In this document: piece by piece, positions 3,772 through 21,931 of the stretch | Numbering within the stretch: the stretch's first letter is position 1 | How the letters are laid out: the number at the start of each line of letters is the position of its first letter | Virus record (IMG/VR): IMGVR_UViG_3300020043_002528 | Coordinates: 1-36,206 of that record | DNA length: 36,206 bases | Reading direction: 5' to 3' (one strand) | Source: a virus | Taxonomy: Duplodnaviria > Caudoviricetes | Program-made: the position numbers and the translations under genes | The notes under the pieces: generated by a model | The model's input: only the letters and a program-made list of their open reading frames with translations | What the model was told of the DNA's origin: nothing | Database searches by the model: none

Positions 3772-3787
3772 AGAGAACTGTATCTCA

Positions 3788-4094: not shown

Positions 4095-4097
4095 CTA

Positions 4098-4186: not shown

Positions 4187-4191
4187 TCAAT

Positions 4192-5704: not shown

Positions 5705-5864
5705 GCTGGTGGAATTAGGCTTTAGCGAAGTAGTACCAGGGTTTTGGGTAGGTAGCGTATTTGCCTTAAATAAACTTTATCAACAAGGGAGACAGGATGA
5801 GTCTGGAGCAACGAGCAGAGCAGCTAGACGAGGCGAGGAGACTGAGGATTATCAAGTCGGATAG
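5691..5864 (+). CDS. 57-aa hypothetical protein (not in ORF track)
   Basis: AAGGA RBS; MKESKLVELGFSEVVPGFWVG...; fills the gap before the helicase and overlaps its start. Confidence 0.45.
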   Translation: MKESKLVELGFSEVVPGFWVGSVFALNKLYQQGRQDESGATSRAARRGEETEDYQVG

Positions 5865-6798
5865 CATTGACGTAGAGAAATATCTTCATGCCAACGATGT
5901 AACGCTAAAGGTAAAACAGGCTAGGGATTTCTTAGATGCAATAAAGGAAAGCTATCTCAGCACTACGAGAGATGCAAAAATACTATTGCCTTGGACTAAG
6001 ACGCACGATTCTTTTGCGTTTAGACCCGGAGAAGTAACGGTTTATGCGGGTTCTAACGGCGGTGGCAAGTCGTTATTGACTGGACAGATAGCTTTGCACC
6101 TAGTGAAGCAGAAACAATGCGTTTGCATTGCGTCGTTCGAGATGAAGCCACAAAAGACGTTAGAAAGGATGCTGCGACAGTTTGCAGGTGAGTATGTAGA
6201 TGATCCGCTAACGTCAGATCGTGAGGGTTACATCACAAAACTTCTAGCAAGATTAGAGAAATATACCGCTGACTCGTTATATTTATACGACCAGCAGGGA
6301 ACAACTAGCCCTGACAAAGTGATAGCAATGTCGAGATATTGCGCTATGGAACTAGGTGTCCAGCATATCTTTATCGATTCGCTAATGAAAACAGTAAAGA
6401 ACGAGGATGACTTTAACGGTCAGAAGAACTTTATCGATGAGCTAACGGCATTGGCTCGTGACCATAACGTACACATTCACCTAGTCCACCATATCCGCAA
6501 ACAGCAGTCAGACGAGGTTACGCCGAATAAGAATGACTTGAAAGGGAGTGGTTCCATTAGCGATCAGGTGGATAACGTCTTTCTGGTGTGGCGCAACAAA
6601 AAGAAAGAAAACCAGAGAAATCGTGGTGAGCAGATCGACGAATCTCAGGGAGATTGTTACCTAATGTGCGAGAAACAACGTAATGGTGAATCTCAGGACT
6701 GGTATCAACTCTGGTATCACTCGGCAAGTCAGCAGTTTGTGGAGAGTGCAACATCAAGACCTATGGACTTTGACAACAATGGACGTTTTAGAGACTGA
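5797..6798 (+). CDS. DnaB/T7 gp4-like replicative helicase
   Basis: Walker A AGSNGGGKS, ASFEM, IFIDSL, HLVHHIRK, DLKGSGSISDQVDN. Confidence 0.9.
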   Translation: MSLEQRAEQLDEARRLRIIKSDSIDVEKYLHANDVTLKVKQARDFLDAIKESYLSTTRDAKILLPWTKTHDSFAFRPGEVTVYAGSNGGGKSLLTGQIALHLVKQKQCVCIASFEMKPQKTLERMLRQFAGEYVDDPLTSDREGYITKLLARLEKYTADSLYLYDQQGTTSPDKVIAMSRYCAMELGVQHIFIDSLMKTVKNEDDFNGQKNFIDELTALARDHNVHIHLVHHIRKQQSDEVTPNKNDLKGSGSISDQVDNVFLVWRNKKKENQRNRGEQIDESQGDCYLMCEKQRNGESQDWYQLWYHSASQQFVESATSRPMDFDNNGRFRD

Positions 6799-6982
6799 AA
6801 GACATCGATGCGAGGTTAGGCAGGTACTAGCGTGGAGAGCAGCAGACAGAGATTCAGCGTTACGTTATCTGAGCGTTGTGAGACAGAAACGTGGGCATAA
6901 AGCGGCTGACCAACTAGAGGCTGACTGTAAACAGCAATGGGGTTTAGGAAACCGAGGCAAGAAAGGGGATTGGCGTGGATAA
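6779..6982 (+). CDS. Hypothetical protein
   Basis: ERHRCEVRQVL...QWGLGNRGKKGDW; internal ATG chosen to reduce overlap with the helicase. Confidence 0.65.
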   Translation: MDVLETERHRCEVRQVLAWRAADRDSALRYLSVVRQKRGHKAADQLEADCKQQWGLGNRGKKGDWRG

Positions 6983-7172
6983 CTATGAATTACACATGAA
7001 AACACATACCTGCCATGCTGACTGTCAGAATCCAATCTGTGTAGCGGTAAGGAAGGCTTTAGCGGAAGAACGAGAGGAGTGTGCAAGGCATTTTGATGAG
7101 GACGCTAACAGATCACATTACGGATACCACATTTCATCCTATATCCGTTCAAGGGGTCAGAATGGTCTTTAA
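6975..7172 (+). CDS. Hypothetical Cys/His-rich protein
   Basis: HTCHADCQNPIC...AEEREECA; GGGG RBS. Confidence 0.6.
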   Translation: MDNYELHMKTHTCHADCQNPICVAVRKALAEEREECARHFDEDANRSHYGYHISSYIRSRGQNGL

Positions 7173-7452
7173 GCGCGTGGATACAAACCAGACGCAGATA
7201 GTCCGAGAACTTCGTAGGTTAGGTATGGAGGTACTACACCTGCACTCGGTTCATCATGGGTGTCCGGACATTCTAGTTGGTTACAAAGGTAGAAACATTT
7301 TGTTAGAAATAAAGAAAGACGAGAAAGCCAAGCTAACACCAGATCAGGAGGTATGGCACAAGATGTGGCGAGGTCAGGTAGCGGTAGTGTCTAACCCACA
7401 GGCTGCGATTAAGGCTGTAAGACTTGCTTGTAATGAAACTATTGAGGAATGA
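7162..7452 (+). CDS. VRR-NUC/Holliday-junction-resolvase-like nuclease
   Basis: KRVDTNQ...GCPDILVG...LLEIK...KLTPDQ. Confidence 0.85.
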   Translation: MVFKRVDTNQTQIVRELRRLGMEVLHLHSVHHGCPDILVGYKGRNILLEIKKDEKAKLTPDQEVWHKMWRGQVAVVSNPQAAIKAVRLACNETIEE

Positions 7453-7458
7453 TTCTTA

Positions 7459-7502
7459 ATAGAAATATTTATGTTGCGATCTGGAATTACTTTAGCTATA
7501 GT
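7459..7502 (+). promoter_or_regulatory. Sigma70-like promoter with upstream 15-bp box
   Basis: ATAGAAATATTTATG-TTGCGA-17 bp-TATAGT. Confidence 0.65.
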
Positions 7503-7542
7503 TACTTCACAGCAGCACAATATTCATTAACTAGGAGCTGAG

Positions 7543-7716
7543 ATGGAAAAGTTACTTAAAACTCTGGAAAAAAAGTTAAAAACCCTTGAGTCAAGAATTG
7601 CTACATTAGAAGCAAAAGCAAAGTCTGGAACTGATTTTGGTGCTATCGGTCAAATGAATTTTCTAGCAAGGGAATATCGTCGCAATATTCAATCAATAAA
7701 GCAGCGAATCGTATAA
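7543..7716 (+). CDS. 57-aa coiled-coil protein in a moron-like unit (not in ORF track)
   Basis: AACTAGGAG RBS; MEKLLKTLEKKLKTLESRIATLEAKAKSG...; own promoter and downstream hairpin. Confidence 0.75.
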   Translation: MEKLLKTLEKKLKTLESRIATLEAKAKSGTDFGAIGQMNFLAREYRRNIQSIKQRIV

Positions 7717-7722
7717 ATAAAT

Positions 7723-7740
7723 ACCGGGGGAAACCCCGGT
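7723..7740. terminator. GC-rich hairpin, possible terminator
   Basis: ACCGGGG-GAAA-CCCCGGT; U-tract poor on plus strand, A-rich upstream. Confidence 0.5.
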
Positions 7741-7747
7741 TCCTACT

Positions 7748-8077
7748 ATGAACTCAATCGATCCTCACGAAGCAATTAACTACATGATTAAGAACGCTAA
7801 AGCCTATGCCCAAGCTAAGGCTGAGGTGACTTACTTAGAGGAGTTTCGTAAAAGCAAGAAAGCTATGTTATTCAGTTCGGCTATCGGGAATACGGTAGCG
7901 GATCGTGAGAATCAGGCTTATAGCCATCCAGATTACTTAGCGGTGCTAGATGGGCTTAAGGCGGCTGTAGAGAAGGCTGAAGGGCTTAGATGGATGCTGG
8001 TAGCAGCACAGGCAAGGATAGATGTCTGGAGGTCGCAGGAGGCTTCTAATCGTGGTTTAGACCGGATTACTCAATAG
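7748..8077 (+). CDS. Hypothetical helical phage protein
   Basis: 109-aa ORF ending RIDVWRSQEASNR... Confidence 0.75.
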   Translation: MNSIDPHEAINYMIKNAKAYAQAKAEVTYLEEFRKSKKAMLFSSAIGNTVADRENQAYSHPDYLAVLDGLKAAVEKAEGLRWMLVAAQARIDVWRSQEASNRGLDRITQ

Positions 8078-8085
8078 GTGATGAT

Positions 8086-8295
8086 ATGAACGAGATAGAT
8101 GATTCCAACTTAGCACAATGCTGTTCCTGTGGGTTTGTAGACTATTGGGATGAGATTCCAAAGGGCAGATGTGTATTCTCAGAGGACTATTTGACAGAAT
8201 GTCCTGAATGTGGGGATGTAGACGGATTTGCCGATTACGATCCAGAAAGAGCCAAGCGAATAAATGAAAAAAAGCGAAGCCAAATACCTAGCTAA
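8086..8295 (+). CDS. Small zinc-ribbon protein
   Basis: CCSC...CPECG. Confidence 0.65.
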   Translation: MNEIDDSNLAQCCSCGFVDYWDEIPKGRCVFSEDYLTECPECGDVDGFADYDPERAKRINEKKRSQIPS

Positions 8296-8557
8296 AGTGG
8301 CTGACATAGGCTGCATTATCTGTTATAAAAATGGTTATCCCGGCACTCCGGCAGAAATTCATCATACTCGAGGATTAGGGCTTGGGATGGGAGTTCGGAA
8401 CTCTCACGACAATGTTTTGCCGTTATGTCCTGAGCATCATAGGGGAAATACTGGCTATCATGGGCTTGGTCGTAAGGCTTTCGAGCGTAAATATGGTGTA
8501 ACTGAGGCAGAACTTCAGGACGAACTAGCGGAGTTGCTAAATGAAAAAGATGACTAA
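8264..8557 (+). CDS. Ref-like HNH nuclease (recombination enhancement family)
   Basis: GCIIC...AEIHH...LPLCPEHHRG..GYHGLGRKAFE. Confidence 0.75.
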   Translation: MKKSEAKYLAKVADIGCIICYKNGYPGTPAEIHHTRGLGLGMGVRNSHDNVLPLCPEHHRGNTGYHGLGRKAFERKYGVTEAELQDELAELLNEKDD

Positions 8558-8705
8558 GATGCAAAAGAAAATTGGTAAAGTCATGGGGGAGTTCAAGGAA
8601 GGAACTTTACATTCTGGCAAGGGTGGTCCAGTAGTTAAAAACCCGAAACAGGCTATTGCCATTGCTTTGAGCGAGGCAAAGATGGCTAAAAAGGGTAAAA
8701 AATGA
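8541..8705 (+). CDS. 54-aa basic protein (DUF6496-like; not in ORF track)
   Basis: KIGKVMGEFKEGTLHSGKGGPVVKNPKQAIAIALSEA. Confidence 0.8.
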   Translation: MKKMTKMQKKIGKVMGEFKEGTLHSGKGGPVVKNPKQAIAIALSEAKMAKKGKK

Positions 8706-8851
8706 AGCCCGGACTCTATGCAAATATCCATGCCAAGCGTAAGCGGATAGAAGCTGGCAGCAAGGAGAAGATGCGTAAGCCGGGATCAAAAGGTGCGCCA
8801 ACGGCTAAAGCCTTCAAACAGGCTGCTAAAACCGCTAAGGTCAAGAAATGA
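8702..8851 (+). CDS. 49-aa highly basic protein (not in ORF track)
   Basis: MKPGLYANIHAKRKRIEAGSKEKMRKPGSKGAPTAKAFKQAAKTAKVKK; ATGA overlaps on both sides. Confidence 0.8.
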   Translation: MKPGLYANIHAKRKRIEAGSKEKMRKPGSKGAPTAKAFKQAAKTAKVKK

Positions 8852-9330
8852 AGAATTGCCCTAAAGCCACCTACGATATTCAATACAATCTGAAAAAACG
8901 CGATTGGGCTTTCAAGAACGTAGGCTATGGTCCTGCGAATCCTGAAGAACCAAAGGATTTTTGGGATAAACGAGCCGAGGAGTGGAATACGACTCCTGAA
9001 AATGCTCAAACGATGCGTTGTGGCAACTGTTCTGCTTTTATCCAGACTCCTGAAATGATGGAGTGCATCATTAAGGGTATTCAGGGTGAGGAATCTGACG
9101 CTGAGACTTACGCTAACGAGGTCGTAGATTCGGCTGATCTGGGTTATTGTGAGCTTTTCGAGTTCAAGTGTGCAGCAGATAGGACTTGTTCGGCTTGGCT
9201 AGTTGGTGGTCCTGTAACGGAAAAGATGTCAAACCGTGAAAAGACCATGCTAAAGATGGCTAAGATGGAAGCTGAGAACGAATACGGAGAAATGGAAGAT
9301 GAAGAAAACTCCGGCATGGACGAGGACTGA
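8848..9330 (+). CDS. Cys-rich protein with HiPIP-like cysteine spacing
   Basis: RCGNCSAF...GYCELFEFKCAADRTCSAW. Confidence 0.6.
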   Translation: MKNCPKATYDIQYNLKKRDWAFKNVGYGPANPEEPKDFWDKRAEEWNTTPENAQTMRCGNCSAFIQTPEMMECIIKGIQGEESDAETYANEVVDSADLGYCELFEFKCAADRTCSAWLVGGPVTEKMSNREKTMLKMAKMEAENEYGEMEDEENSGMDED

Positions 9331-9601
9331 GGGTAAGAATCCTAAAGGCGGCTTAAACGCTAAGGGTAGAGCCTCCTACGAAGCTGCTAACCCCGGTTCT
9401 GACCTAAAGGCTCCTGTAAAGTCAGGAGATAACCCTAGACGCGCTAGTTTCCTAGCCCGTATGGGCAATATGCCGGGAGCAGAGCGCAAACCTAACGGTG
9501 AGCCTACTCGGTTACTCCTAAGCCTAAAGGCATGGGGAGCTAGTTCTAAGGCTGATGCCAGAGCTAAAGCTAAAGCCATTTCCGCACGAAATAAAAAGTG
9601 A
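9299..9601 (+). CDS. Basic protein (DUF6321-like)
   Basis: AWTRTEGKNPKGGLNAKGRAS...RRASFLARMG. Confidence 0.75.
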   Translation: MKKTPAWTRTEGKNPKGGLNAKGRASYEAANPGSDLKAPVKSGDNPRRASFLARMGNMPGAERKPNGEPTRLLLSLKAWGASSKADARAKAKAISARNKK

Positions 9602-10116
9602 GCCATCAGAGCCAGCTAGACTTTGTAGCGATGGTTAAGCGTCGCTTTCCGCAATTCTTTTCCGGCAAGAAAGTCTTAGAGATAGGTAGTCTGGACATTA
9701 ACGGTTCAGTCCGTCAGTTCTTTGAGGATTGTGAGTATCTCGGCGTTGACTTAGGGGAAGGTAAGGGCGTTGATCTGGTTGCTAAGGGAGAGGAACTAGA
9801 CTTCCCTGACAAGAGTTTCAACGTAGCAATATCCTGTGAGTGTTTCGAGCATAATCCTCAATGGGTAAAGACGTTCGAGAACATGGTTCGGATGGCTTCA
9901 GGCATCGTCATCATGACCTGTGCTACGACTGGCAGACATGAGCATGGAACGAGGCGCACAAGTCCAGAGGATGCGCCATTTTGCGGTGATTACTACAGAA
10001 ACCTAACGGAGCAGGATTTCTTGCAAAACTGCGATATGGACAAGTTCCTACATTACGAGTTTAGTAGTAACTCTAGTCCAGCAGACCTTTACTTTTGGGG
10101 CTTATGCAAGCCATAG
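9598..10116 (+). CDS. Class I SAM-dependent methyltransferase (small-molecule/glycan type)
   Basis: VLEIGSLD motif I, GVD, ISCECFEH; no DNA-MTase catalytic motif. Confidence 0.8.
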   Translation: MSHQSQLDFVAMVKRRFPQFFSGKKVLEIGSLDINGSVRQFFEDCEYLGVDLGEGKGVDLVAKGEELDFPDKSFNVAISCECFEHNPQWVKTFENMVRMASGIVIMTCATTGRHEHGTRRTSPEDAPFCGDYYRNLTEQDFLQNCDMDKFLHYEFSSNSSPADLYFWGLCKP

Positions 10117-10805
10117 TTATCTGTACGGTGAGTAATCCCGGCATTAGCGTATTGCTAGAAAGCATCAAGGTATATGCACCATCATTACCCGTTTACATTT
10201 ATAGCGTTGACATTGCCAGAGGAGAGAGATTCCGACGAATCTTGCCCAATGTTATCGTCAGACCCAATACTGGTAGAAATTTTGGAGACTCATATAATGA
10301 AGCCATCAGCGACGTTTTTGGAAGGGTCGCAGTCGATTCATTGATTGTAGCTAACGATGATGTTGTACTTAATCCAAGTACACTAGCACTATTAAGGGAA
10401 GATAAGCAGATTCTTGAGGAAAACGGGCAGAAGATAGGTTTCTTAGGTGCAAGAAGCGACTATGTGTTGCCAGATCAGAATATTAGGTTTGAAGGTGGCG
10501 GTAGAGATGGGGTGAGATGGAGTCATGAGAATTTCATCAAGGAAACTCAGGTGATAGCACCCATATTTGCCACGATAACGAGAGAAGCTTGGGATACGGC
10601 AAAGTTTCCTAGCACTAATTGGTATTCAGATAATATAATTTGCCATGACCTGCAAAAAGCGGGCTATAGGCATTTCGTAAGTAGGGCGTATGTTCATCAC
10701 GCTGGAAGTCAAACAGTAGGGATGGACTACCAGAAATGCCATGAGGAACCTAGGGCGTGGATAAAAGAAAACCGTCCTGATATGTACACAGCCATTTACG
10801 CATGA
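10104..10805 (+). CDS. GT-A (family 2-like) glycosyltransferase
   Basis: NFGDSYN, IVANDDVV, WYSDNIIC, YVHHAGSQT. Confidence 0.75.
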   Translation: MQAIVICTVSNPGISVLLESIKVYAPSLPVYIYSVDIARGERFRRILPNVIVRPNTGRNFGDSYNEAISDVFGRVAVDSLIVANDDVVLNPSTLALLREDKQILEENGQKIGFLGARSDYVLPDQNIRFEGGGRDGVRWSHENFIKETQVIAPIFATITREAWDTAKFPSTNWYSDNIICHDLQKAGYRHFVSRAYVHHAGSQTVGMDYQKCHEEPRAWIKENRPDMYTAIYA

Positions 10806-10821
10806 CACCGAGAGGTAATGC
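10800..10821 (+). promoter_or_regulatory. RBS-sequestering GNRA hairpin, copy 1
   Basis: GCAU-GAC-ACC-GAGA-GGU-A-AUGC directly before the TTG start. Confidence 0.55.
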
Positions 10822-11967
10822 TTGCAGATCAAAAAAGTTGAAGTTGAGAAACTTATTCCTTACGTTCGGAATAGCCGGACACATTCGGATGCTCAGGTAG
10901 CGCAGATAGCAGCCAGCATTAAGGAGTTTGGGTGGACTAACCCGATCCTAGTGGATGGAGAGAACGGGATCATAGCGGGGCATGGAAGGCTATTAGCGGC
11001 TAGGAAACTAGGGGCTAAGGATGTTCCTGTCATTGAGCTATCTCACCTAACGGAAAGCCAGAAAAGGGCTTATGTCATAGCGGATAACCAGTTAGCGATG
11101 AACGCTGGTTGGGATACAGCGATGCTGACGCTAGAGTTAGCAGATTTGAAAGAGTCCGAGTTTGACTTAGACCTGATTGGATTTGACGCAAAAGAGCTAG
11201 AGAAGCTGCTGGAGCCGGAACAGGTGGATGGGCTAACGGACGAGGATGCCGTACCTGATGCGCCAGAGGAGCCTAAGACTAAGCTAGGGGATATATATCA
11301 GTTAGGCAATCACCGGTTGATGTGTGGGGATAGCACTAGCATTGATGCCGTAGAGAAACTAATGGATGGTCAGAAAGCCGATATGGTGTTTACTGATCCT
11401 CCGTACAACGTGGCATTTAATGGACGTAGCGGCAAGCACGACGTAATTAAAAACGACAACTTGCCAGATATAGAATTTAGGAATTTCATTGCGGAAATAT
11501 GTAGCGTAATTAAACTTGTTGACCCAAAGGCGTATTACATTTGGTGCAACTGGAAGTTTTATGGCGTACTACAAGAGTTGCTTGAGTACAAAACCTGTAT
11601 CGTTTGGGCTAAGAATGTTTTTGGTATGGGGCAAGGCTATAGGCATCAACATGAGTTTTGCTTGTTTTACGGCAAAATTGATGAAGTTGTTAAAAATGAA
11701 AGTGATTTGTGGGAAATTAAAAAAGACACAAATTATGTCCACCCAACACAAAAGCCAGTTGCGTTGTCCGTAAGGGCATTTGGCAATCATGTAAAGTTGC
11801 TAAATGTGCTAGATTTGTTTGGTGGTAGTGGCAGCACTTTAATAGGCGCAGAACAAACGGGTCGTAAAGCATTCTTAATGGAACTAGACCCTAAATACTG
11901 TGATGTAATAGTAAAGCGGTGGGAAGATTTCACAGGCAAGAAAGCCGTATTGTTGACAGAAGCGTAA
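10822..11967 (+). CDS. ParB-N domain fused to N6A/N4C DNA methyltransferase
   Basis: IIAGHGRLLAA (ParB); FTDPPY, HPTQKPV, LDLFGGSGST (beta-class motif order). Confidence 0.9.
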   Translation: MQIKKVEVEKLIPYVRNSRTHSDAQVAQIAASIKEFGWTNPILVDGENGIIAGHGRLLAARKLGAKDVPVIELSHLTESQKRAYVIADNQLAMNAGWDTAMLTLELADLKESEFDLDLIGFDAKELEKLLEPEQVDGLTDEDAVPDAPEEPKTKLGDIYQLGNHRLMCGDSTSIDAVEKLMDGQKADMVFTDPPYNVAFNGRSGKHDVIKNDNLPDIEFRNFIAEICSVIKLVDPKAYYIWCNWKFYGVLQELLEYKTCIVWAKNVFGMGQGYRHQHEFCLFYGKIDEVVKNESDLWEIKKDTNYVHPTQKPVALSVRAFGNHVKLLNVLDLFGGSGSTLIGAEQTGRKAFLMELDPKYCDVIVKRWEDFTGKKAVLLTEA

Positions 11968-11991
11968 CAGTTCCCCTTAAGAAAACATTTT

Positions 11992-12342
11992 ATGACTTTG
12001 GAACATAAACCGAGTGATGAACAGAGGAAACTTGTTGAGACATCAGCAGGTCTAGGCTTGCCTCATGAGCAGATAGGTGCGTTAGTAGGGATAGATGACA
12101 AGACCTTACGCAAGCACTATAGGCATGAACTAGACATAGGCAAGGCTAAAGCCAGCGCACAGATAGCCAAGACGCTGTTTACTAAGGCTCAGGGCGGGGA
12201 TACGACTGCGTTGATCTGGTGGACTAAGGCTCAAATGCGTTGGGCTGAAACGCAGAGGCAAGAGGTAACAGGGGCTAACGGTGGCGCACAAGAGATGGTG
12301 GTTAAATGGGGAGGTAGGCATGAAGTACCGAAAGATGACTAA
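11992..12342 (+). CDS. terS: Terminase small subunit (putative)
   Basis: HTH (LPHEQIGALVGIDDKTLRKHY), ALIWWTK, EVTGANGG; immediately upstream of TerL. Confidence 0.75.
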   Translation: MTLEHKPSDEQRKLVETSAGLGLPHEQIGALVGIDDKTLRKHYRHELDIGKAKASAQIAKTLFTKAQGGDTTALIWWTKAQMRWAETQRQEVTGANGGAQEMVVKWGGRHEVPKDD

Positions 12343-12406
12343 TTGTCCGAGTTGCAGCGCATTTCTTGTTAGCGGCAAATGCTTGAATTGTGGGTATCGT
12401 GGCTGA
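12320..12406 (+). CDS. 28-aa zinc-finger microprotein (not in ORF track)
   Basis: GGAGG RBS; MKYRKMTNCPSCSAFLVSGKCLNCGYRG. Confidence 0.55.
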   Translation: MKYRKMTNCPSCSAFLVSGKCLNCGYRG

Positions 12407-13655
12407 AATCGTCATTGACTACGAGCCTAGAGCGCAGCAGCTAGAGATACATGATGCCATTGAGCAGCATCGTTTTACTGTGGTGGTTGCCCATCGTCGT
12501 ATGGGAAAGACTGTTAGCGCAATCAATCATCTTATCAAGTCCGCTATCGAGTGCGACAAGCCAGACCCAAGATTTGCCTACATTGCGCCTACCTACGGGC
12601 AAGCCAAACGAGTAGCGTGGGATTACCTACAGAAGTACACCAGACCACTAGGAGCTACCTACAATGTCTCTGAGTTACGTGCTGATTTTTATGGGCGTAG
12701 GGTTAGTCTATACGGGTCTGATAATCCTGACAGTCTTAGGGGTCAGTATTTTGATGGCGTGGTTATCGACGAAGTTGGCGATCAGAACCCACGTATTTGG
12801 AACGAAATCATCCGACCTGCTCTTGCCGACCGTCGTGGGTGGGCTTGTTTCATTGGCACTCCTAAAGGCAATAACCATTTCGCTGAACTAGCGGATAGAG
12901 CCAAGTCTGAGGAAGGCTGGAAGTTCCTAGAGTTCAAGGCTAGTCAGACAGGCGTTTTGCCTAACGAGGAACTTAAAGCAGCCTATCGAGAGATGGGTGA
13001 GGACAGGTATAACCAAGAGTTCGAGTGTTCCTTTAACGCAGCGGTTGAGGGGTCTTACTATGGCAAAATTATTAACGAGCTTGAAGGGAATAGCCATATT
13101 ACTGATTTTCCTCGTGATGATCTGTGCCGTAGCTTTACTGCATGGGATATTGGAATGGGTGACAGTACAGCTATATGGGTTGCTCAATTGGCTGGAAAAG
13201 AGATTAGATTACTCGATTTCGTCGAAAACCATGGACAGGGATTAGATTGGTACGTCAATTGGCTACGAGAGAACGATTACGAGGGATTCAGCCATATCCT
13301 TCCCCATGACGTACAGGTAAGGGAATTAGGCACAGGAAAGAGCCGTAAGGAAGTCTTAGAGGAAGCAGGGCTATCGATAACGGTTGCGCCTAGACTTAAT
13401 GTAGCTGATGGGATACAGGCTGTCAGGAGATTGCTGCCTCGGTGCTGGTTCCATCCGAGGGTTAAGCAGGGGTTGGATGCGCTGAGGAACTACCGTCGGG
13501 AGCATGACGAGAAGCGGCAGATATTCTATGAAAAGCCGCTACATGACTGGTCTAGCCATGCCGCTGACGCTTTTAGATACCTCGCAATAGGTCTTGACGA
13601 GCGAGATAGTTCATGGCAGACAACGTTGCCAATTTCTACAAAATGGATTGTATAA
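12399..13655 (+). CDS. terL: Terminase large subunit
   Basis: HRRMGKT Walker A, VVIDE Walker B, IGTPKG, AWDIG and SHAADAFRY nuclease motifs; start uncertain (12390 or 12399). Confidence 0.95.
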   Translation: MAEIVIDYEPRAQQLEIHDAIEQHRFTVVVAHRRMGKTVSAINHLIKSAIECDKPDPRFAYIAPTYGQAKRVAWDYLQKYTRPLGATYNVSELRADFYGRRVSLYGSDNPDSLRGQYFDGVVIDEVGDQNPRIWNEIIRPALADRRGWACFIGTPKGNNHFAELADRAKSEEGWKFLEFKASQTGVLPNEELKAAYREMGEDRYNQEFECSFNAAVEGSYYGKIINELEGNSHITDFPRDDLCRSFTAWDIGMGDSTAIWVAQLAGKEIRLLDFVENHGQGLDWYVNWLRENDYEGFSHILPHDVQVRELGTGKSRKEVLEEAGLSITVAPRLNVADGIQAVRRLLPRCWFHPRVKQGLDALRNYRREHDEKRQIFYEKPLHDWSSHAADAFRYLAIGLDERDSSWQTTLPISTKWIV

Positions 13656-13658
13656 TAG

Positions 13659-13680
13659 GCAAAACTCCGTAAGGATGTGC
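13659..13680 (+). promoter_or_regulatory. RBS-sequestering GNRA hairpin, copy 2; TATAAT at 13651-13656 may mark a promoter
   Basis: GCA-AAAC-UCC-GUAA-GGA-UG-UGC before the portal ATG. Confidence 0.5.
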
Positions 13681-13681
13681 T

Positions 13682-15790
13682 ATGAAGATGGATTCCGGTC
13701 AGATCAAAAGTATTATCGAGAATGAAATCGATAATTCCATCGGTTACATTGATACCGAGACTACAGACCAACGGGCTAAGGCTCTAGAGTATTACCTGCG
13801 TTATCCCTATGGTAACGAGATTGAAGGACGCAGCCAGATCGTTACTGGCGAGGTAGCTGAGGCTATCGATGGTGCGTTACCCCAACTTATCCGAGTCTTT
13901 ACGACTACCGAGGATATTGTCTCTTTTGAGCCACAGACTCCAGAAGATGAGCAGTCTGCTAAACAGGCTACAGACTATTGCAACTGGGTGTTCTACCGGG
14001 AAAATGACGGTCTAATCATCCTGCATAACTGGTTCAAAGACGCGCTGATGATGAAGGTCGGCGTAGTCAAGGCGTACTGGGAAGCCAAAGAGGACGTTAA
14101 TAAAGAGTCCTACAAGAACCTGACCGAAGATGAATTAGCCCTGCTACTGTCTGATCCTGCTATCGAGGTGGTCAGCCAGAACGTCGAATTTATCGATGGT
14201 GGCGTTGATCCTATGGGTATGCCGATCCAGATTCCGCTGTACTCGGTCAAGGTCAAGAAGGTCAAGAAATACGGCTGCGTCAAGATTGAGAACGTACCGC
14301 CAGAAGAATTCTTGATTAGCAAATCGGCAAGAACTATTGAGGATAGCCCGTTTGTGGCTCATCGTCGGTTGCTGACTCGCTCAGAGTTGGTAGCGATGGG
14401 GTTCGATAAGGATGTGGTCGAGGGATTGCCTTCTTACGATGATCTCCAGTACACAGTCGAGCGAGTAGCTCGATTCTCTCAGGGTGAGCAGCCGGATGAA
14501 AATATTAGCCTTGACCCTACGATGCAGGTCTGTGAGGTCTATGAGTGCTATATCAAGATTGACGTTAATGGCGACGGTATCGCTGAACTGCGTAAGATCG
14601 TTTATGCAGGTAGCGAAATCCTAGATGACGAGGAATGTGACCTAGTTCCATTCCATAGCCTGTGTCCGATCCCGATCCCGCATAAATTTTTTGGACAGTC
14701 GCTAGCAGACCGGACGATGGACATCCAGCTAATCAAGTCCACTGTAACCCGTCAGATGCTCGACAACCTGTACCTAACGAACAATGCCCGTCTGGGTGTG
14801 GTTGATGGTCAGGTGAACTTAGATGACGCGCTAAACGCTACTCCGGGTGGGATTATCCGCATGAAGTCTCAGGGTGCGATTATGCCTGTCGAGGTTCCTG
14901 CGGTAACGGCTCAGGCTTTCCCGATGCTTGAGTACATGGATGCGGTTCAGGCTAAACGTACAGGCGTTAGCGACCAGCAGCAGGGTCTTGACCCTGACGT
15001 GCTGAATAACGTATCGGCTACGGCTATTGCCGCGATGATGAAGTCGAACTCTGGCAAGCTGGAGTTGATCGCTAGAATCTTTGCTGAGACAGGCGTGAAG
15101 TCGCTGTTTAAGGGCATTTTGCATCTATTGGGCAAGTATCAGGATCAGGCAAAGATTGTCCGTATGCGTGGCAAGTTTGTGGCATTTGATCCTCGTACAT
15201 GGACGAATCAGTACGACGTGGCGATTAACGTTGGCTTGGGTTCAGGTGACCGGGATCAGAAACTAGCCATGCTCCAGATGATTCTAGGCAAGCAGGAACA
15301 AGCCTTGATGCAGTTCGGTGCGTCTAACCCATTGGTGTCGGTGGCTCAGTACCGCGATACCTTGGCTAGACTGATTGAATCGGCTGGCTTTAAGGATGCC
15401 AAGGCATTCATTAACGAGATCAGCCCTGAGCAGAACGCACAACTGTCTCAGCCACAGGAACCGCCACCAGATATGCAAGCAGAGGCTACTCGTCTGTTGG
15501 CTCAAGTAGAGCGTGAGAAGACCGAGGCTAAGGCTCAGATTGAGGCTGCAAAGCTCCAGCTAGAGAAGCAGTCGCTTGAGGCTGAATATACTCGCAAGGG
15601 TATTGAGATTGCTATGAAAGCCGAGCAAAACGCAGCAGATATGCGGATTAAGGAAGCAGAGCTAGCGGTCAAGCAGTTGCAAGCGATTCTAGCGATGGAC
15701 TTGGCTGACGAGGATAGCCGTAACAAACAGGCTGATATTGTCCTGAAAGCGATTAAAGAGCTAGGTAACCTAACGTCAAGGCAGATGTAA
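13682..15790 (+). CDS. Portal protein (podovirus/P22-like with C-terminal helical barrel)
   Basis: 702 aa after TerL; ENVPPEEFLI, PHKFFGQS, DIQLIKST; Q/E/A coiled-coil tail. Confidence 0.9.
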   Translation: MKMDSGQIKSIIENEIDNSIGYIDTETTDQRAKALEYYLRYPYGNEIEGRSQIVTGEVAEAIDGALPQLIRVFTTTEDIVSFEPQTPEDEQSAKQATDYCNWVFYRENDGLIILHNWFKDALMMKVGVVKAYWEAKEDVNKESYKNLTEDELALLLSDPAIEVVSQNVEFIDGGVDPMGMPIQIPLYSVKVKKVKKYGCVKIENVPPEEFLISKSARTIEDSPFVAHRRLLTRSELVAMGFDKDVVEGLPSYDDLQYTVERVARFSQGEQPDENISLDPTMQVCEVYECYIKIDVNGDGIAELRKIVYAGSEILDDEECDLVPFHSLCPIPIPHKFFGQSLADRTMDIQLIKSTVTRQMLDNLYLTNNARLGVVDGQVNLDDALNATPGGIIRMKSQGAIMPVEVPAVTAQAFPMLEYMDAVQAKRTGVSDQQQGLDPDVLNNVSATAIAAMMKSNSGKLELIARIFAETGVKSLFKGILHLLGKYQDQAKIVRMRGKFVAFDPRTWTNQYDVAINVGLGSGDRDQKLAMLQMILGKQEQALMQFGASNPLVSVAQYRDTLARLIESAGFKDAKAFINEISPEQNAQLSQPQEPPPDMQAEATRLLAQVEREKTEAKAQIEAAKLQLEKQSLEAEYTRKGIEIAMKAEQNAADMRIKEAELAVKQLQAILAMDLADEDSRNKQADIVLKAIKELGNLTSRQM

Positions 15791-16144
15791 ATGGGATTGC
15801 TAGACGAAATCATCCAGCAGGGGATTAGGTCTTACGGTGCTAGATTTGCCGAAAAAATGTCTGACCCATTGGAAATGAAGGGTAAGGGATATTTCGGGAA
15901 GTTGCCAACTGGCGACGGATTTGCCACTGAGATTTCAATGACTGATGATAGCGGCAGAAGTTTCCCGGCATTGGTTCCAACCCTTACGCAAGATGAGGTT
16001 AATTCATTGTTAAGAGGGAATGACGTAACTGATGATATGTACCGCAAGGCTGAGTCATTTGCTAACTATCGTCAGTCTCAGGGGATGTCTCCATTTGCGT
16101 CACCAAATGAATTGCGTGTTCCTGTAGGATTATTGGGGTACTAA
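15791..16144 (+). CDS. Hypothetical protein with GLL motifs at both termini
   Basis: MGLLD...VGLLGY; core KGKGYFG...PALVPTL. Confidence 0.75.
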   Translation: MGLLDEIIQQGIRSYGARFAEKMSDPLEMKGKGYFGKLPTGDGFATEISMTDDSGRSFPALVPTLTQDEVNSLLRGNDVTDDMYRKAESFANYRQSQGMSPFASPNELRVPVGLLGY

Positions 16145-16821
16145 TGGCTGGCTTACTGAGCGATATTCTAGGTCTGATAGACAGGGCTAAACAGTCCACT
16201 AGGGCTAATGTTGGCTTGTTAATGGACAACCCACAAGAGTACGGTCGGCAGATTAACGAGTCGGCTAGAGACATCAACCGACAGGATACGCTAGCGGTTC
16301 AGGGTCAAAATGCCATGCTTTCAGGTATGCAGCCGAGTCCTGAGCAAATGGCTGCGATGGCGGCTATGCGTCAACGTGCTGAAAACTTAGCGATGGGCTT
16401 TGCTGGCTCTACGAAACCGTTGAATAATCCGGCAAACACTTTGGAAAGAATGTCACCGTGGTTCATAAAGTATCCTAAAGCAGATAAGGTAGTTGATGGG
16501 CTTAATGTTGGCAAAGAAGTAAAAAACATGAGTTCAATCCCGGCTTCCTTTGGGAAATATGAGGTTGAAAAAGGTATTAAGTCCGTTCCAATGAGCGAAT
16601 TCCCGGCATCAAATCCTTACCAAATGTTTAGGTCAAGTGATGATATAAAAAGGGTGCAGGAGTTGGCAGATCAAATTAAGGCAAACAAGCGAATTGATCC
16701 TTTGATTGTGGCTGTTGATAAAAAGGGGTCTTATGTCCTAGAGGGTGGGCATCGGCTTGGGGCGTTAAATCTGTTGGGCATTAAAAATTTCCCAGCAGTA
16801 ATAGTTAGGGATTTAGATTAA
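16144..16821 (+). CDS. Two-part protein: Q/M/A-rich N-terminus plus ParB/Srx-like C-terminal domain
   Basis: MAGLLS...; VQELADQIK...IDPLIV...VLEGGHRLGAL. Confidence 0.75.
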   Translation: MAGLLSDILGLIDRAKQSTRANVGLLMDNPQEYGRQINESARDINRQDTLAVQGQNAMLSGMQPSPEQMAAMAAMRQRAENLAMGFAGSTKPLNNPANTLERMSPWFIKYPKADKVVDGLNVGKEVKNMSSIPASFGKYEVEKGIKSVPMSEFPASNPYQMFRSSDDIKRVQELADQIKANKRIDPLIVAVDKKGSYVLEGGHRLGALNLLGIKNFPAVIVRDLD

Positions 16822-16823
16822 AT

Positions 16824-17054
16824 ATGGACAAATCTCTTTGGGCTGAGAATCTGCTGAAAGATGAGTGGTTCCAACAGATGATGTCGGAACTAAAGACAGC
16901 AGAACTTAACAAGTTTGCATTGAGCCAGTATGATGACATCTCGACTAGAGAACAGGCATACATGACGCTTAGGACGCTAGATATTGTCGAAACGTACCTT
17001 GAAGGGCTATCGGCACAGAAGAAGATTGATGCTAAAAAACTAAAGATTTTGTAA
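16824..17054 (+). CDS. Small head-module protein
   Basis: 76 aa (AENLLKDEWF...REQAY) immediately before the scaffold. Confidence 0.75.
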   Translation: MDKSLWAENLLKDEWFQQMMSELKTAELNKFALSQYDDISTREQAYMTLRTLDIVETYLEGLSAQKKIDAKKLKIL

Positions 17055-17094
17055 TCCGAGTCGGGCGGTTCCCGATATAATTTAGGAAATATAT

Positions 17095-18063
17095 ATGAGC
17101 GATACTGGAAGTATGACCCCGGAAGGGAATACTCAGTTAGACGTAGGTGGTGCAGCCGACGCTATCATGGGTCTTATGGGTGGGCAAGAAGGCTCCGAAC
17201 AGGAACAACCGGAAACCCAACTCGAAGCCAATGATAGCGAAGCCGAATCCGAGGAGTCTTATGACGAATCGGAGGTAGAACAAGATGAAGGCGAAGAAGA
17301 AGCCGAGGAGCCTCCTAAATACAGGGTTAAAGCCGCTGGTGAGGAAAAAGAGGTAACCCTTGATGAGCTTATCAAGTCTTATCAACTTGGCACAGACTAT
17401 ACGAAGAAATCGCAAGCCGTAGCTGAAGAACGCAAAGCCGTAGAAGCAGAGAGGCAGCGTATCGAGGAAGCTAGGTATCTGCGTGACCAATACGCAGAAC
17501 GGTTGCAGGTGATTGAGCAGATGCTTAACCAGCAGCCGGAAACTGAGAATCTGGAGTATCTGAAGGAAACCGATCCTATCGGTTACGCAGTTAAGGTTGC
17601 AGAGTTATCACAGCGGGAAAAGCAGTTAGCTCAAGTTCAGGCTGAACGACAGCGAATTGCGATGCAGCAGGATCAGGAACGTCAGGAGCAACTCGGTCAT
17701 GTGATACAGGCTGAAGCTCGTAAGCTGGCAGAGGCAATACCTGAATATGCTGATCCGCAGAAAGGTGAATTAACTCGGCGGGAACTGAGGGAGTTTGGTC
17801 TTAGGTTAGGGTTTTCAGAGCAAGAGTTATCGGGAGTTTATGACTCTCGGCAGGTTCTAACGCTATGGAAGGCGATGCAATACGACAAGTTGCAATCGTC
17901 TAAACCGGGAATAACCAAGCGTGTGAATGAGGCTCCAAAGGTTGTTAAGTCTGGAGTTTCTCAGCCGCGTGAGGGTAGCGATGAACTGAAAAAGTTAAAA
18001 GCGCGAGCAAAGCAGACCGGAAGGGTCGCTGATGCCGCAAAAGCATTTGAACGATTCTTATAG
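17095..18063 (+). CDS. Capsid scaffolding protein
   Basis: Acidic N-terminus, YRVKAAGEEKEVTLDELIKSYQ..DYTKKSQ, coiled coil; precedes the capsid gene. Confidence 0.85.
   Translation: MSDTGSMTPEGNTQLDVGGAADAIMGLMGGQEGSEQEQPETQLEANDSEAESEESYDESEVEQDEGEEEAEEPPKYRVKAAGEEKEVTLDELIKSYQLGTDYTKKSQAVAEERKAVEAERQRIEEARYLRDQYAERLQVIEQMLNQQPETENLEYLKETDPIGYAVKVAELSQREKQLAQVQAERQRIAMQQDQERQEQLGHVIQAEARKLAEAIPEYADPQKGELTRRELREFGLRLGFSEQELSGVYDSRQVLTLWKAMQYDKLQSSKPGITKRVNEAPKVVKSGVSQPREGSDELKKLKARAKQTGRVADAAKAFERFL
17110..17133 (+). promoter_or_regulatory. GNRA hairpin, copy 3, in the first codons of the scaffold gene
   Basis: AGUAU-GAC-CCC-GGAA-GGG-A-AUACU. Confidence 0.55.
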
Positions 18064-18072
18064 GAAATTATC

Positions 18073-19017
18073 ATGCCTACATTTACAGCACATAGCGCGA
18101 TTGGTCAGCGCGAAGATTTGACCGACATCATCTATGACATCTCGCCTACCGAAACTCCTTTCATGAGTTCGATTGGCAAGACTAAAGCTACAGCCGTTTA
18201 TCATGAGTGGCAGACTGATAGCCTAGCTGCTGCTACGACTGCTAACGCTGCTGTTGAAGGTGCAGACGCTACTTCAGCTACTCTGTCTCCTACCGTCCGT
18301 CTTGGTAACTACACTCAGATTATCCAAAAGACCGTTCAGGTTTCGGGTACTCTGGATACCGTCAACAAGGCAGGTCGTAAGTCGGAAAAGGCTTACCAGT
18401 TGGCTAAAGCATCGGCTGAACTGAAGCGTGATCTGGAAACTATCCTGTTGGCTAACCAAGGTCGTTCGGCTGGTACATCGACCGTTGCTCGTAAGCTCGG
18501 TTCGATCCTGTCATGGATCAAGACTAACTCGGACGTAGGTTCGGGCGGTGCTGATCCTGCAACTATCGGTGTTTCGACTCGTACTGACGGTACACAGCGT
18601 ACCTTTACCGAGACTCTGCTGAAATCGGTAGTGTCTGAGGTATTTGTATCGGGTGGTTCGCCTAAGATTCTGATGGTGGGTGCTGCTGGTAAGCAGAAGG
18701 TTAGCTCGTTTGCTGGTATCGCTGCACAGCGTTACATGGCTCCGGGTAACACTCCGACCACCATTATCGGTGCGGCTGACGTTTATATGTCTGACTTTGG
18801 CACGATGTCGGTTGTTCCTAACCGCTTCATGCGTACTCGTGATGCTCTGGTACTCGACCCAGAATACGCAGCACTAGCGTATCTGCGTCCGTTCCAGACT
18901 AACGATCTGGCTAAGACTGGTGACTCTGAGAATACTCAGTTGCTGGCTGAAGTCACTCTGGAAGTTAAGAACGAAGCAGCACATGGCATTATCGCTGACT
19001 TGGATATGTCGCTGTAA
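18073..19017 (+). CDS. Major capsid protein (DUF5309-like)
   Basis: GQREDLTDIIYDISPTETPF, HEWQTDSL, GNYTQI, LAKTGDS. Confidence 0.92.
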   Translation: MPTFTAHSAIGQREDLTDIIYDISPTETPFMSSIGKTKATAVYHEWQTDSLAAATTANAAVEGADATSATLSPTVRLGNYTQIIQKTVQVSGTLDTVNKAGRKSEKAYQLAKASAELKRDLETILLANQGRSAGTSTVARKLGSILSWIKTNSDVGSGGADPATIGVSTRTDGTQRTFTETLLKSVVSEVFVSGGSPKILMVGAAGKQKVSSFAGIAAQRYMAPGNTPTTIIGAADVYMSDFGTMSVVPNRFMRTRDALVLDPEYAALAYLRPFQTNDLAKTGDSENTQLLAEVTLEVKNEAAHGIIADLDMSL

Positions 19018-19028
19018 TTAGTAGCAAA

Positions 19029-19054
19029 TCCTCCTAGCCTTCGGGCTAGGGGGA
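19029..19054 (+). terminator. 11-bp cUUCGg hairpin after the capsid gene (terminator or mRNA stabiliser)
   Basis: TCCTCCTAGCC-TTCG-GGCTAGGGGGA; no U-tract follows. Confidence 0.55.
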
Positions 19055-19069
19055 ACTACGAAAGGATTT

Positions 19070-19372
19070 ATGAGTATTCCGATACGGACTCAAACAGCAT
19101 ATGAGGATGGTGACGGTGGTATCGTCATCGAGACTAAACAGGACGTTACCGAGATCATTGAGGCTAACAAGGCTCAATTAGATTTCGATAAAGAGCGCAA
19201 AGGGCATCTTAACGAACTGCACCATGTAGCCAGAATACCTTTTACGGTGATTGATGTATTGAACCAGAAAGGGATTATGAAAGGCTTTAACGTGGTGGAT
19301 GATGTTGGGTTTGCTAAATGGCTAAACGACCCTGATAATGCTGTTTGGAAAACGTATCGAGGAACTGTATGA
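19070..19372 (+). CDS. Conserved-type head-module protein
   Basis: QDVTEIIEANK...HVARIP...KWLNDPDN. Confidence 0.8.
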   Translation: MSIPIRTQTAYEDGDGGIVIETKQDVTEIIEANKAQLDFDKERKGHLNELHHVARIPFTVIDVLNQKGIMKGFNVVDDVGFAKWLNDPDNAVWKTYRGTV

Positions 19373-20022
19373 GAGTTGGTGTTTGCGTACCATGTAGGGA
19401 TGAGGTTCACACAGGTTTTGCTTTTGATTTTGCTCGAATGGCGGCTCATGATGCGTCAGTCCGTTGTAAAGATGGCAAAGGCGGTTTGAGCTTATACACA
19501 ATGCCGGGAACGCTGATATTTGACCAGCGTGAGAAGTTGGCAGAAGTAGCGTTTAAAGAAGGTTGCGACGCAGTATTGTTCATTGATAGCGATATGCGGT
19601 TCCCTCACGATATTATTAGCATTATGCTAAGTCGTGAAGTGCCGATAGTTGGTGTCAATGCAACGACTAGACGTAAGCCAGTAACACCGACTGCGAAGAT
19701 GTTGCGTAAGTACATGGATGGGGAGACTCTCGTTCATGAATGGTCGAACATTGATTCTCGCGGTAAAGAAGGAATTGAGGCGGTTACAGCGGTAGGGTTT
19801 GGTGCTGTGATGATCCGTCGAGAGGTATTTGAAAAGACTGGCAGACCTTGGTTTGATGCTGGATGGGGTGCTAGTGGTGTCTGTGGTGAGGATGTCTATT
19901 TCTGCGTCAAGGCTGGTTCTGAGGGCTTTCAGACGTATGTAGACCATGAGCTATCAATGCACATCCGACACATAGGAACTTATGAGTACGGATGGAAAGA
20001 CTTTGAGCAGTTAGAGGAATAA
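19369..20022 (+). CDS. GT-A fold glycosyltransferase within the structural module
   Basis: VGVCVP, LFIDSDMRFP (DxD), VGFGAVMI, GEDVYFC, HIG. Confidence 0.8.
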   Translation: MRVGVCVPCRDEVHTGFAFDFARMAAHDASVRCKDGKGGLSLYTMPGTLIFDQREKLAEVAFKEGCDAVLFIDSDMRFPHDIISIMLSREVPIVGVNATTRRKPVTPTAKMLRKYMDGETLVHEWSNIDSRGKEGIEAVTAVGFGAVMIRREVFEKTGRPWFDAGWGASGVCGEDVYFCVKAGSEGFQTYVDHELSMHIRHIGTYEYGWKDFEQLEE

Positions 20023-21037: not shown

Positions 21038-21931
21038 ATGCCAGCATCAGTCTGTGGACCTTTTACGCTGGAGCAACTAGACCTATTTAATAAGTCTATA
21101 GATGCTCTAGCGTTTTCTTTGGATAGTACCGTTTGGACTGATCCGAATGTATGCGTTTTATATGGCGATGCTGTTGTAAGTGGGTTAGCGACAGTCGCTT
21201 GTTTTGGGTCAAGGATTAAGCGGTTTTCTGCATCAATCAATGGTACTGCAACGGTTACAGCTTCTGGCTATCGTATCAAATTTGCTGCTGGTGCTGTTTC
21301 CGCTACAGGAACTGTTACCTGTACTCCACAGCGAGTAAGAAGTTTTGCTGCGAGTGTTAATGCTACTGCAACTGTAACCGCGATTGGTGGCAAAGTTGCT
21401 TCTGGTGCAGCATCTATTGTTGGCATTGCTACTGTTTCATGCGCTGCTAGTAAGTTTGTTGGCAGTAGTGCAAGTGTTTTCTGTTCTGCTAATGTTGTTT
21501 GTTCTCCGTCTAGGGTTCTTTCTGGAGGTGGGCAAATTACCGGATCGGCTACGGTTAGTGCTGCGTCGGTAAGAATTCGTCAAAGCGAAGCAAGTATTAA
21601 CGGTATAGCTACGGTTACTGCATTAGGTGGTGTCTCTTATTCTGGTAGTGCCTCTATTATTTGTGATGCAACGGTAACTGCTGCTGGTTCTGCTGTTTAT
21701 AGCCAGATTACGTCTATAACCGCGTTAGCTTCCGTATCTGCCAACGGTGCGATTATTGGGGCTGAATGGACTGATAGTGCTGTTGAGAGCGCAAATTGGC
21801 AAACAGTTAGCGACCAGAGCGATTCTTGGACTAAGGTTACCGAAACTGCACCAGATTGGACAAATCAAAGTGAAATTGTGCCTGTTTGGACTAATCAAAC
21901 AGCAGGATCAGATGGTTGGTTGAGGCAATAA
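21038..21931 (+). CDS. Ala/Ser/Thr-rich repetitive tail/fibre protein
   Basis: ~19-aa repeats (ASINGTATVTA-like); C-terminal W-T/Q repeats. Confidence 0.7.
   Translation: MPASVCGPFTLEQLDLFNKSIDALAFSLDSTVWTDPNVCVLYGDAVVSGLATVACFGSRIKRFSASINGTATVTASGYRIKFAAGAVSATGTVTCTPQRVRSFAASVNATATVTAIGGKVASGAASIVGIATVSCAASKFVGSSASVFCSANVVCSPSRVLSGGGQITGSATVSAASVRIRQSEASINGIATVTALGGVSYSGSASIICDATVTAAGSAVYSQITSITALASVSANGAIIGAEWTDSAVESANWQTVSDQSDSWTKVTETAPDWTNQSEIVPVWTNQTAGSDGWLRQ

Follow-up and report, generated by a model that had tools for sequence, protein, structure and literature searches.

A bulged RNA hairpin shared by the scaffold gene and the terminase cassette of aquatic phages: a candidate translational operator

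The window analysed here is a 36,206-nt stretch of DNA from a virus of the Caudoviricetes (IMG/VR record IMGVR_UViG_3300020043_002528), and it includes a head and packaging module with the following features.

10800..10821, + strand: motif copy A, the packaging-cassette site (28.9 bits; in the covariance model's training set); orthologous copies lie before putative terS, ParB-methylase or terL
10822..11967, + strand: ParB-N plus N6/N4 DNA methyltransferase with a TTG start, opening the packaging cassette (phrog_498; PF01555, PF02195)
11992..12342, + strand: terminase small subunit, with no motif at its own start (phrog_309)
12390..13655, + strand: terminase large subunit (phrog_2)
13658..13681, + strand: portal leader hairpin over an AGGA RBS, a look-alike (9.4 bits, E 2.8)
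13682..15790, + strand: portal protein (phrog_1216)
17060..17076, + strand: a second hairpin just 5' of the scaffold RBS
17095..18063, + strand: head scaffolding protein, the putative binder (phrog_3927; structure model m3b21e199ebb9)
17110..17133, + strand: motif copy B, within scaffold codons 6-13 (29.7 bits; in the same training set)
18073..19017, + strand: major capsid protein (MCP), the first 60 nt of which lack the motif (phrog_1328)

Copies A and B belong to a conserved hairpin of 20-28 nt in which an outer stem leads through a 3-nt bulge into an inner stem and returns past a single A, giving a 3x1 internal loop. Copy A has a GAGA loop on a 3-bp inner stem, set off by the GAC bulge and single A from an outer stem of 4 bp, and it spans the GAGGT Shine-Dalgarno sequence (10812-10816) and adjoins the TTG start; copy B has a 5-bp outer stem and the same GAC bulge, 3-bp inner stem and single A around a GGAA loop. 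A first-pass annotation of this DNA had described a bulged GNRA hairpin at the starts of the methylase, portal and scaffold genes, and all three of its sequences are present where it placed them. A strict pattern, defined post hoc from these sites, matches three times on the plus strand of the window and never on the minus strand, and none of 300 dinucleotide shuffles contains it. The drawn fold is obtained for every one of the three sites, with energies of -5.1, -5.7 and -6.5 kcal/mol (z of -2.7, -1.6 and -1.4). The comparison with Rfam that the annotation had suggested produced no family matching over the sites; it used Rfam 15, GP20-a/b and the ribosomal-protein leaders included, and covered the whole window (E<=5), 81- and 121-nt stretches (E<=10) and four related loci (E<=1).

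The loop of the hairpin is not fixed. It is GNRA in 19 of 63 scaffold copies, in 2 of 24 stem-closed matches of the terS/methylase type and in 62 of 75 terL copies of the Venkman type. Loop sequence and length, and the stem as well, vary freely between copies, while the unpaired GAC/A is constant at unrelated loci; GAC is the commonest bulge, with CAA, TAC and CAC in other clades. The annotated motif is real and conserved at two of its three sites, but the GNRA loop, at such frequencies in the scaffold and terS/methylase copies, does not stand as a conserved or recognition feature.

Selection on RNA structure, which the annotation had proposed from covarying bases, is borne out by the related sequences. 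The first inner pair takes four types among 63 scaffold rows (L258 and L429, with misassigned starts, left out), and 17 changes, all complementary switches of this one pair, are needed on a quick tree of those rows. Three Watson-Crick inner pairs are present in 222 of 228 scaffolds parsed. Six of seven pairs have changed on both sides in alignment A2, which, like the descriptor, was assembled from matching sequences, so that pairing percentages are inflated. Both helices are closed in the alignment by Watson-Crick or G-U pairs, and a G-U-type pair is tolerated at the closing pair in 20 of the 63 scaffold rows. These sequence comparisons support the view that the element is a conserved RNA structure under selection, common to gene starts of the head and packaging module. 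A DNA-level signal, either pac-like or a repressor-binding site, would suit the position of copy A at the leading end of the terminase cassette, the location annotated for the pac sites in P22, yet it is scarcely credible for a motif whose arms covary as the primary sequence changes, whose helices accept G-U-type pairs and whose second copy is inside the scaffold coding sequence and confined to the sense strand.

Two known structural modules were compared with the internal loop. A kink-turn consists of a 3-nt bulge flanked by tandem G-A/A-G pairs, which the Watson-Crick or G-U closure of both helices does not match. In a C-loop the long strand reads C-A-(C/A) and the non-canonical pairs cross; the CAC and CAA variants fit that strand, and the commonest form is GAC.

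Of 60 distinct scaffold N-termini (L258 left out), 54 carry the motif at codons ~4-13, against 3.5 expected from synonymous resampling. A further, more distant clade has it in 18 of 33 rows (1.7 expected), a count in which eight rows using an internal Met are scored as misses, two matches come from the window's own clade and one, in L703, lies at an unusual position. The scaffold copy is the only one found in that distant clade, which makes the scaffold mRNA the sole universal target. The frame is identical throughout the 63 rows, with bulge and single A at first and second codon positions, so amino-acid constraint contributes to this copy; the Venkman scaffold copy keeps the reading frame of the others. 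A look-alike at the scaffold 3' end (18011-18036) was not counted, as it occurs at 32 of 117 distinct ends, has inner G-U pairs and shows no two-sided change.

The site attributed to the methylase belongs to whichever gene opens the terminase cassette, in this genome an inserted ParB-methylase. Searching IMG/VR with the 5' half of the motif plus GGTA gave 120 matches, 24 of which close the outer stem, compared with about one expected from base odds. Within 8 nt, 21 of the 24 begin a putative terS or ParB-methylase; one precedes an endonuclease-like start, one is cut by the contig end and one is unrelated. The motif stands at the first cassette gene in 55 of 65 terS1 contexts (the strict form being absent in the other ten), 15 of 16 with methylase and terS2, 2 of 4 with terS3 and 1 of 2 with terS4, though part of the loci behind these counts was retrieved by the motif pattern itself. 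It lies directly before terL in 14 contexts of the Venkman clade, and 67 of 75 Venkman-type matches precede terL. That the site is kept while the terS family changes, and shifts to terL, argues against terS as the binder. Nor is the methylase supported as the evolutionary target, given that relatives carry the motif before any of three kinds of gene; it would be regulated here only through occupying the first position behind a terminase-cassette operator. Cargo genes such as ParB-methylases could inherit an operator in this way, by inserting behind it.

Across 62 non-redundant loci (874 kb), 70 sense matches lie at scaffold or cassette starts, 20 lie elsewhere, close to the chance level (15.4 in shuffles), and 5 are antisense. 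An equal frequency away from gene starts or in shuffled sequence, which the annotation had named as evidence against its proposal, is therefore not what is found. Among other starts the motif is present at 0 of 109 distinct ones for MCP, 1 of 84 for portal and 1 of 112 for terL. The aquatic phages that carry it form a large family, and it is present in two cultured phages, Methylophilales phage Venkman (scaffold and terL) and Sinorhizobium phage phiM5 (scaffold). A DNA-ejection gene shares the motif in two clades. Searches for protein homologues returned close relatives only, and a search of sequencing runs recovered at most 0.14 of query words, all from contigs.

Conservation at orthologous positions, whose absence the annotation had also named as evidence against its proposal, is found for the scaffold and cassette sites and does not extend to the portal site as the same motif. 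The portal hairpin has a 4x2 loop instead of the conserved 3x1, and its score and E-value are those of background when set against the two training copies. Its GNRA core recurs in only 15 of 124 near-clade portal loci, which are redundant, and more distant portal leaders have no such hairpin by eye. We regard it as a look-alike, and a three-gene GNRA-hairpin regulon with the portal leader as a full operator is very doubtful, the loop being unconserved at the real sites as well. In favour of such a regulon, the portal allele in the window is correctly spaced and folds as drawn, and a clade-restricted outer stem over the portal RBS is kept in 100 of the 124 near loci, so that a weak, degenerate site is conceivable. 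The motif ties scaffold to terminase, not portal. A weaker copy proposed before the 33293 gene (33271-33287) was rejected: it has no outer stem, its fold has a z of 0.08 against shuffles, the model does not find it at E<=10, and the gene behind it has no homologue among the loci examined. A model match at 13720-13737 (13.4 bits) was discarded for its zero-nucleotide loop.

The reading we favour, at close to even odds (about 0.48), is that the element may be a translational operator to which free scaffold binds, repressing synthesis of both scaffold and terminase. The hairpin would act on the mRNA, and the protein would read the bulge instead of the loop. At copy A, the bound protein would stabilise a weak hairpin in which the Shine-Dalgarno sequence is concealed; at copy B the hairpin so stabilised would lie at the ribosome's downstream margin during initiation. 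Free scaffold would in turn signal that coat protein or procapsids are in short supply.

Several phage systems follow a comparable logic. The coat operators of MS2 and PP7 and the gp32 and RegA operators of T4 are small hairpins at a translation start that a phage protein binds and represses, and like the present element they contain an unpaired A. Recognition in MS2 and PP7 depends on the loop, whereas here the loop is free, the 3x1 internal loop is fixed (the single A lying opposite a 3-nt strand), the host of the element is a dsDNA phage and there are several target genes. The P22 scaffolding protein (gp8) is described as regulating its own translation, and the likeness lies in a control element at the scaffold-gene start of a podophage-type head module, through which free scaffold is proposed to limit its own synthesis; such a cis element is present here. 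Bases 1-20000 of P22, however, have no copy at the scaffold, terL, portal or ejection starts by either descriptor or model (the terS start lies outside this range), so P22 is an analogy only, and the present element differs from it as a defined, covarying RNA structure that also stands at the terminase cassette and, for two clades, at a DNA-ejection gene. It supplies a precise candidate target in RNA, backed by covariation, through which head assembly of dsDNA phages would be controlled after transcription. As two cultured phages carry it, mRNA recognition in scaffold autoregulation is now accessible to direct test.

Scaffold remains the most likely binder among the candidates, its own gene being the sole universal target. 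There is a real but minority chance that the same operator is read by another conserved phage protein, such as MCP, portal, the 76-aa protein encoded before scaffold or the 100-aa protein encoded after the capsid gene. The motif data do not identify the binder, and core genes are as widespread as scaffold: portal, MCP, the 20024 gene and the 19070 gene are found in 7 of 7 annotated motif-bearing genomes. Against these candidates, a universal scaffold target suits autoregulation, for which P22 offers a precedent by analogy. The window's small accessory proteins are not required, since the complete, motif-bearing genome L134 lacks homologues of them. The terminase of SPP1 is described as repressing its own synthesis, a similar feedback at the start of a terminase operon; here terminase is an unlikely binder, as the site is kept when one terS family gives way to an unrelated one and is found before terL in other phages. 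The scaffold structure model (pTM 0.43) has a conserved beta-hairpin and helix at residues 75-110, and fold and sequence searches with the scaffold gave generic helical hairpins or nothing significant, a result that does not show an RNA-binding fold to be absent.

Two further readings dispense with a phage-encoded ligand. The reader of the loop might be a conserved host factor that limits translation or cuts late mRNA, whether a ribosomal or other RNA-binding protein or a ribonuclease. Asymmetric internal loops are typical ribosomal-protein sites, and the motif persists among phages whose hosts differ, as Venkman and phiM5 illustrate. This is nevertheless unlikely, as no Rfam leader matches and different phage clades have different bulges (GAC, CAA/TAC, CAC), which a co-evolving phage protein explains more easily. 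Alternatively, the hairpin might have no ligand and by itself adjust the rate of initiation or the stability of the mRNA, setting low terminase and moderate scaffold output. Copy A does hide the Shine-Dalgarno sequence directly and the hairpins fold unaided, but tuning is quite improbable for hairpins as weak as -5 to -6.5 kcal/mol, and it has no need for the same unpaired GAC/A at unrelated loci whose stems and loop lengths differ freely.

No description of the motif was found in the literature searched, and a coding-region structure of ~22 nt can escape RNA catalogues. The nearest published candidates are predicted cis-regulatory RNAs before phage structural, terminase and ParB-methylase genes, namely GP20-a and GP20-b (RF02991, RF03003) and the csRNA candidates of Fremin et al. 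2023 (PMC10690425). The GP20 motifs are 72-107 nt long and have no Rfam match at the present sites. The DNA-virus set of Fremin et al. is intergenic with lengths of 29-151 nt, which probably puts the in-frame scaffold copy outside its reach; copy A could overlap one of its unnamed candidates, such as the freshwater ParB-methylase-linked DNAVirus_329. Weinberg 2017 does not mention terminase, portal or scaffold in its main text.

More tentatively than the operator itself, it is possible that the scaffolds of this widespread aquatic podophage family are sequence-specific RNA-binding regulators, which would read the 3x1 loop on scaffold, terminase and, in some clades, DNA-ejection mRNAs, with bulge and protein co-evolving by clade. 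If so, the assembly state of the procapsid would gate synthesis of the packaging motor. Concordance of the bulge within a genome is mixed. The rare CAA bulge is found at both the scaffold and the second copy in L256 and L446, sister rows that represent one lineage; L415 and L447 have CAA in scaffold and GAC at the cassette, and L429 has CAC.

The window, a whole virus record with direct terminal repeats at the ends of its 36,206 bases, has as its nearest annotated relatives freshwater-spring phages and the Methylophilales phage Venkman (capsid identity 56%). Its head module and the two motif copies discussed here are as follows.

10800..10821, sense strand: terminase-cassette copy
Start 10822: ParB-methylase
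Start 11992: terS, terminase small subunit
Start 12390: terL, terminase large subunit
Start 13682: portal
Start 17095: scaffold
17110..17133, sense strand: scaffold copy
Start 18073: major capsid protein

The three hairpins reported by the first-pass annotation exist in the window as described, and the strict pattern finds three sense-strand matches, none on the other strand and none in 300 shuffles. Since that pattern was drawn from these three sites, only relatives can test it. Judged by the relatives, the motif is a real selected structure (probability about 0.95), located on the sense strand at specific gene starts.

The queries used to retrieve related loci were the scaffold, portal and capsid proteins of the window, together with capsid proteins from three phages further away. 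Scaffold starts conserve one layout: outer stem, 3-nt bulge, inner stem (3-6 pairs), a loop that varies, and a lone A. The corresponding descriptor matched 54 of 60 distinct N-termini (L258, where a wrong start was chosen, omitted), against 3.5 expected under synonymous codon redrawing; of the six misses, one is pelagiphage HTVC106P and the other five are distant, prophage-like loci. At other gene starts the same descriptor matched 0/109 for capsid, 1/84 for portal and 1/112 for terL; its rate in random windows was 303 in 20,000. Applied unchanged to a later-fetched clade, with capsids mostly 47-57% identical to the window's, it matched 18 of 33 N-termini (1.7 expected), most of them with CAC in the bulge; eight of the 33 rows began at an internal start, two of the matches are from the window's own clade, and CAC, sighted earlier in L258 and L429, was part of the descriptor before this clade was fetched. 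The annotated phages with a scaffold copy are Sinorhizobium phage phiM5 and three spring phages; the descriptor does not find it in RHph_N3_2, ppBeUSDA76-2, PaP3 or HTVC106P.

Paired bases covary in the relatives. In 32 aligned copies of 22 nt, selected for matching the motif, six of seven pairs show two-sided change (slid controls, 31-39% paired), and on a 63-row scaffold tree, by a quick method, the first inner pair takes four types and needs 17 changes, falling on third codon positions. A parser requiring complementarity was passed by 222 of 228 scaffolds. Bulge and single A occupy one codon frame in all rows of the 63-row set, so amino-acid constraint contributes to their conservation in the scaffold; the non-coding copies of the terminase cassette are exempt from it. 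The GNRA loop, first taken as the shared feature, is common without being required (19/63 scaffold copies, 2/24 terS-type among the IMG/VR matches listed, 62/75 Venkman-type).

Other structures lie around the two ends of the scaffold gene. A second hairpin lies immediately 5' of its RBS (17060-17076) and is conserved in the near clade; this slot holds different hairpins in other clades, two of them in the Venkman clade. At the gene's 3' end, some 40 nt short of the capsid start, a motif-like fold (18011-18036) occurs in 32 of 117 distinct ends; it shows no two-sided change and is probably a coding by-product.

The hairpin first attributed to the methylase is a genuine motif copy that belongs to the terminase cassette rather than to the methylase. 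A pattern scan of IMG/VR (5' half plus GGTA, 9 of 64 parts covered) gave at least 120 matches. Among those listed, the outer stem closes in 24: 14 at a putative terS, seven at ParB-methylase and one at an endonuclease-like ORF, with the start within 8 nt, plus one cut at a contig end and one unrelated. The putative terS family is "unknown" in PHROGs; its position before terL, a C-terminal tail like that of the window's terS and DUF5681-like features point to this assignment. Across 112 distinct cassette contexts, including some loci fetched by the motif pattern itself, the motif stands at the first gene in 55/65 terS1, 15/16 methylase plus terS2, 2/4 terS3 and 1/2 terS4 cases (distinct putative terS families), and immediately 5' of terL in 14 Venkman-clade cases; it is at terL in 0/10 contexts without a recognised terS. 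A Venkman-type pattern with entirely different stems gave 75 matches, 67 before terL, three before terS3, one before ParB-methylase and four before short ORFs. This persistence at the first cassette gene suggests that the operator stays while the gene behind it changes. No motif was found near terL in 14 loci of the most distant clade, where terS may lie elsewhere.

The packaging cassette is modular (window 10822-12342; related loci L601 and L240), unrelated terS families interchanging behind the same operator; ParB-methylase occurs behind window-type and Venkman-type operators alike, and the endonuclease-like ORF of L240 begins with a terS-like N-terminus. A variant cassette site (L134, about 8270-8295; L382, L384, L387) has a GAG bulge and one extra base on each side; the scaffold copy in these genomes has GAC.

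An additional copy lies 5' of the DNA-ejection gene (phrog_4287) in two clades. The motif is not equally frequent away from gene starts: a strict GAC descriptor, run on 62 non-redundant loci totalling 874 kb, matched the sense strand 70 times at the starts of scaffold, terS, terL, methylase or ejection genes and 20 times elsewhere, against 15.4 in shuffles; five matches were antisense. The ejection-gene copy (L134, about 21050-21090; L381, L383-L387; L256, 10793-10825), with a TATAAT just 5', sits within a mutually exclusive 9-10-bp stem. Both folds appear by eye to covary between L134 and L256, and an RNA switch is possible.

The portal hairpin (13658..13681), originally grouped with the others, falls outside the motif. 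The covariance model gives it 9.4 bits (E 2.8), whereas the cassette and scaffold copies, both training sites, reach 28.9 and 29.7 bits; the GNRA core of the portal hairpin occurs in 15 of 124 near-clade portal loci, and in 100 of them a different outer stem, hardly varying, encloses a variable centre. Distant portal leaders, compared by eye, have no such hairpin. By these comparisons it is a separate leader hairpin, a degenerate motif site at most. The proposed weaker copy at 33271-33287 failed every test. At 13648-13681, a TATAAT over the terL stop codon is followed by the portal leader hairpin over the RBS, an arrangement kept in the near clade that may be an internal promoter giving a structured 5' end.

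Presumably acting on mRNA, the motif is likely to be a protein-bound translational operator. The hairpins are weak by folding energy, and unpaired positions are constant while stems and loop vary, which suggests that a ligand recognises the internal loop. Facing an invariant A, the first bulge base may be G, C or U, a variation that would fit a sheared N-A pair on isosteric grounds. With the Shine-Dalgarno masked by the cassette copy and the scaffold copy beginning 15 nt past the start codon's first base, the simplest effect of binding would be repression of initiation.

TerS is an unlikely ligand, since the site survives terS replacement, and the window's accessory small proteins have no homologue in a complete motif-bearing genome. 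Wyckoff and Casjens reportedly treated P22 scaffold autoregulation in 1985. The scaffold protein is favoured here, tentatively and at little short of even odds: no target other than its own gene is universal, and 10.1101/2022.12.13.520362 implicates the P22 scaffold in translational autoregulation. P22 differs in that the motif was not found in its bases 1-20000. Another core phage protein or a host factor would fit the distribution equally well. Concordance of the bulge within a genome has one supporting lineage (L256, L446) and counter-examples in L415, L447 and L429. In a structure model of the scaffold (pTM 0.43), residues 75-110 form a beta-hairpin plus helix that is conserved.

No Rfam family matches the motif sites, and no description was found in the available portions of the full-text literature, including PMC10690425, PMC5737381, PMC6316719 and PMC9004378; the candidates in the first, which bear on the novelty of the cassette copy, were compared by text and table rows. 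The motif is a real, apparently uncatalogued cis-regulatory RNA that ties scaffold to terminase genes and leaves the portal out; its binder is a candidate only.

Elsewhere in the window, two accessory genes (15791-16821), one with a C-terminal ParB-N domain, lie between the portal and a 76-aa gene, in a slot that differs in length between relatives. A 678-aa tail-region protein (30542-32578) is built from near-identical repeats and looks beta-propeller-like by eye.
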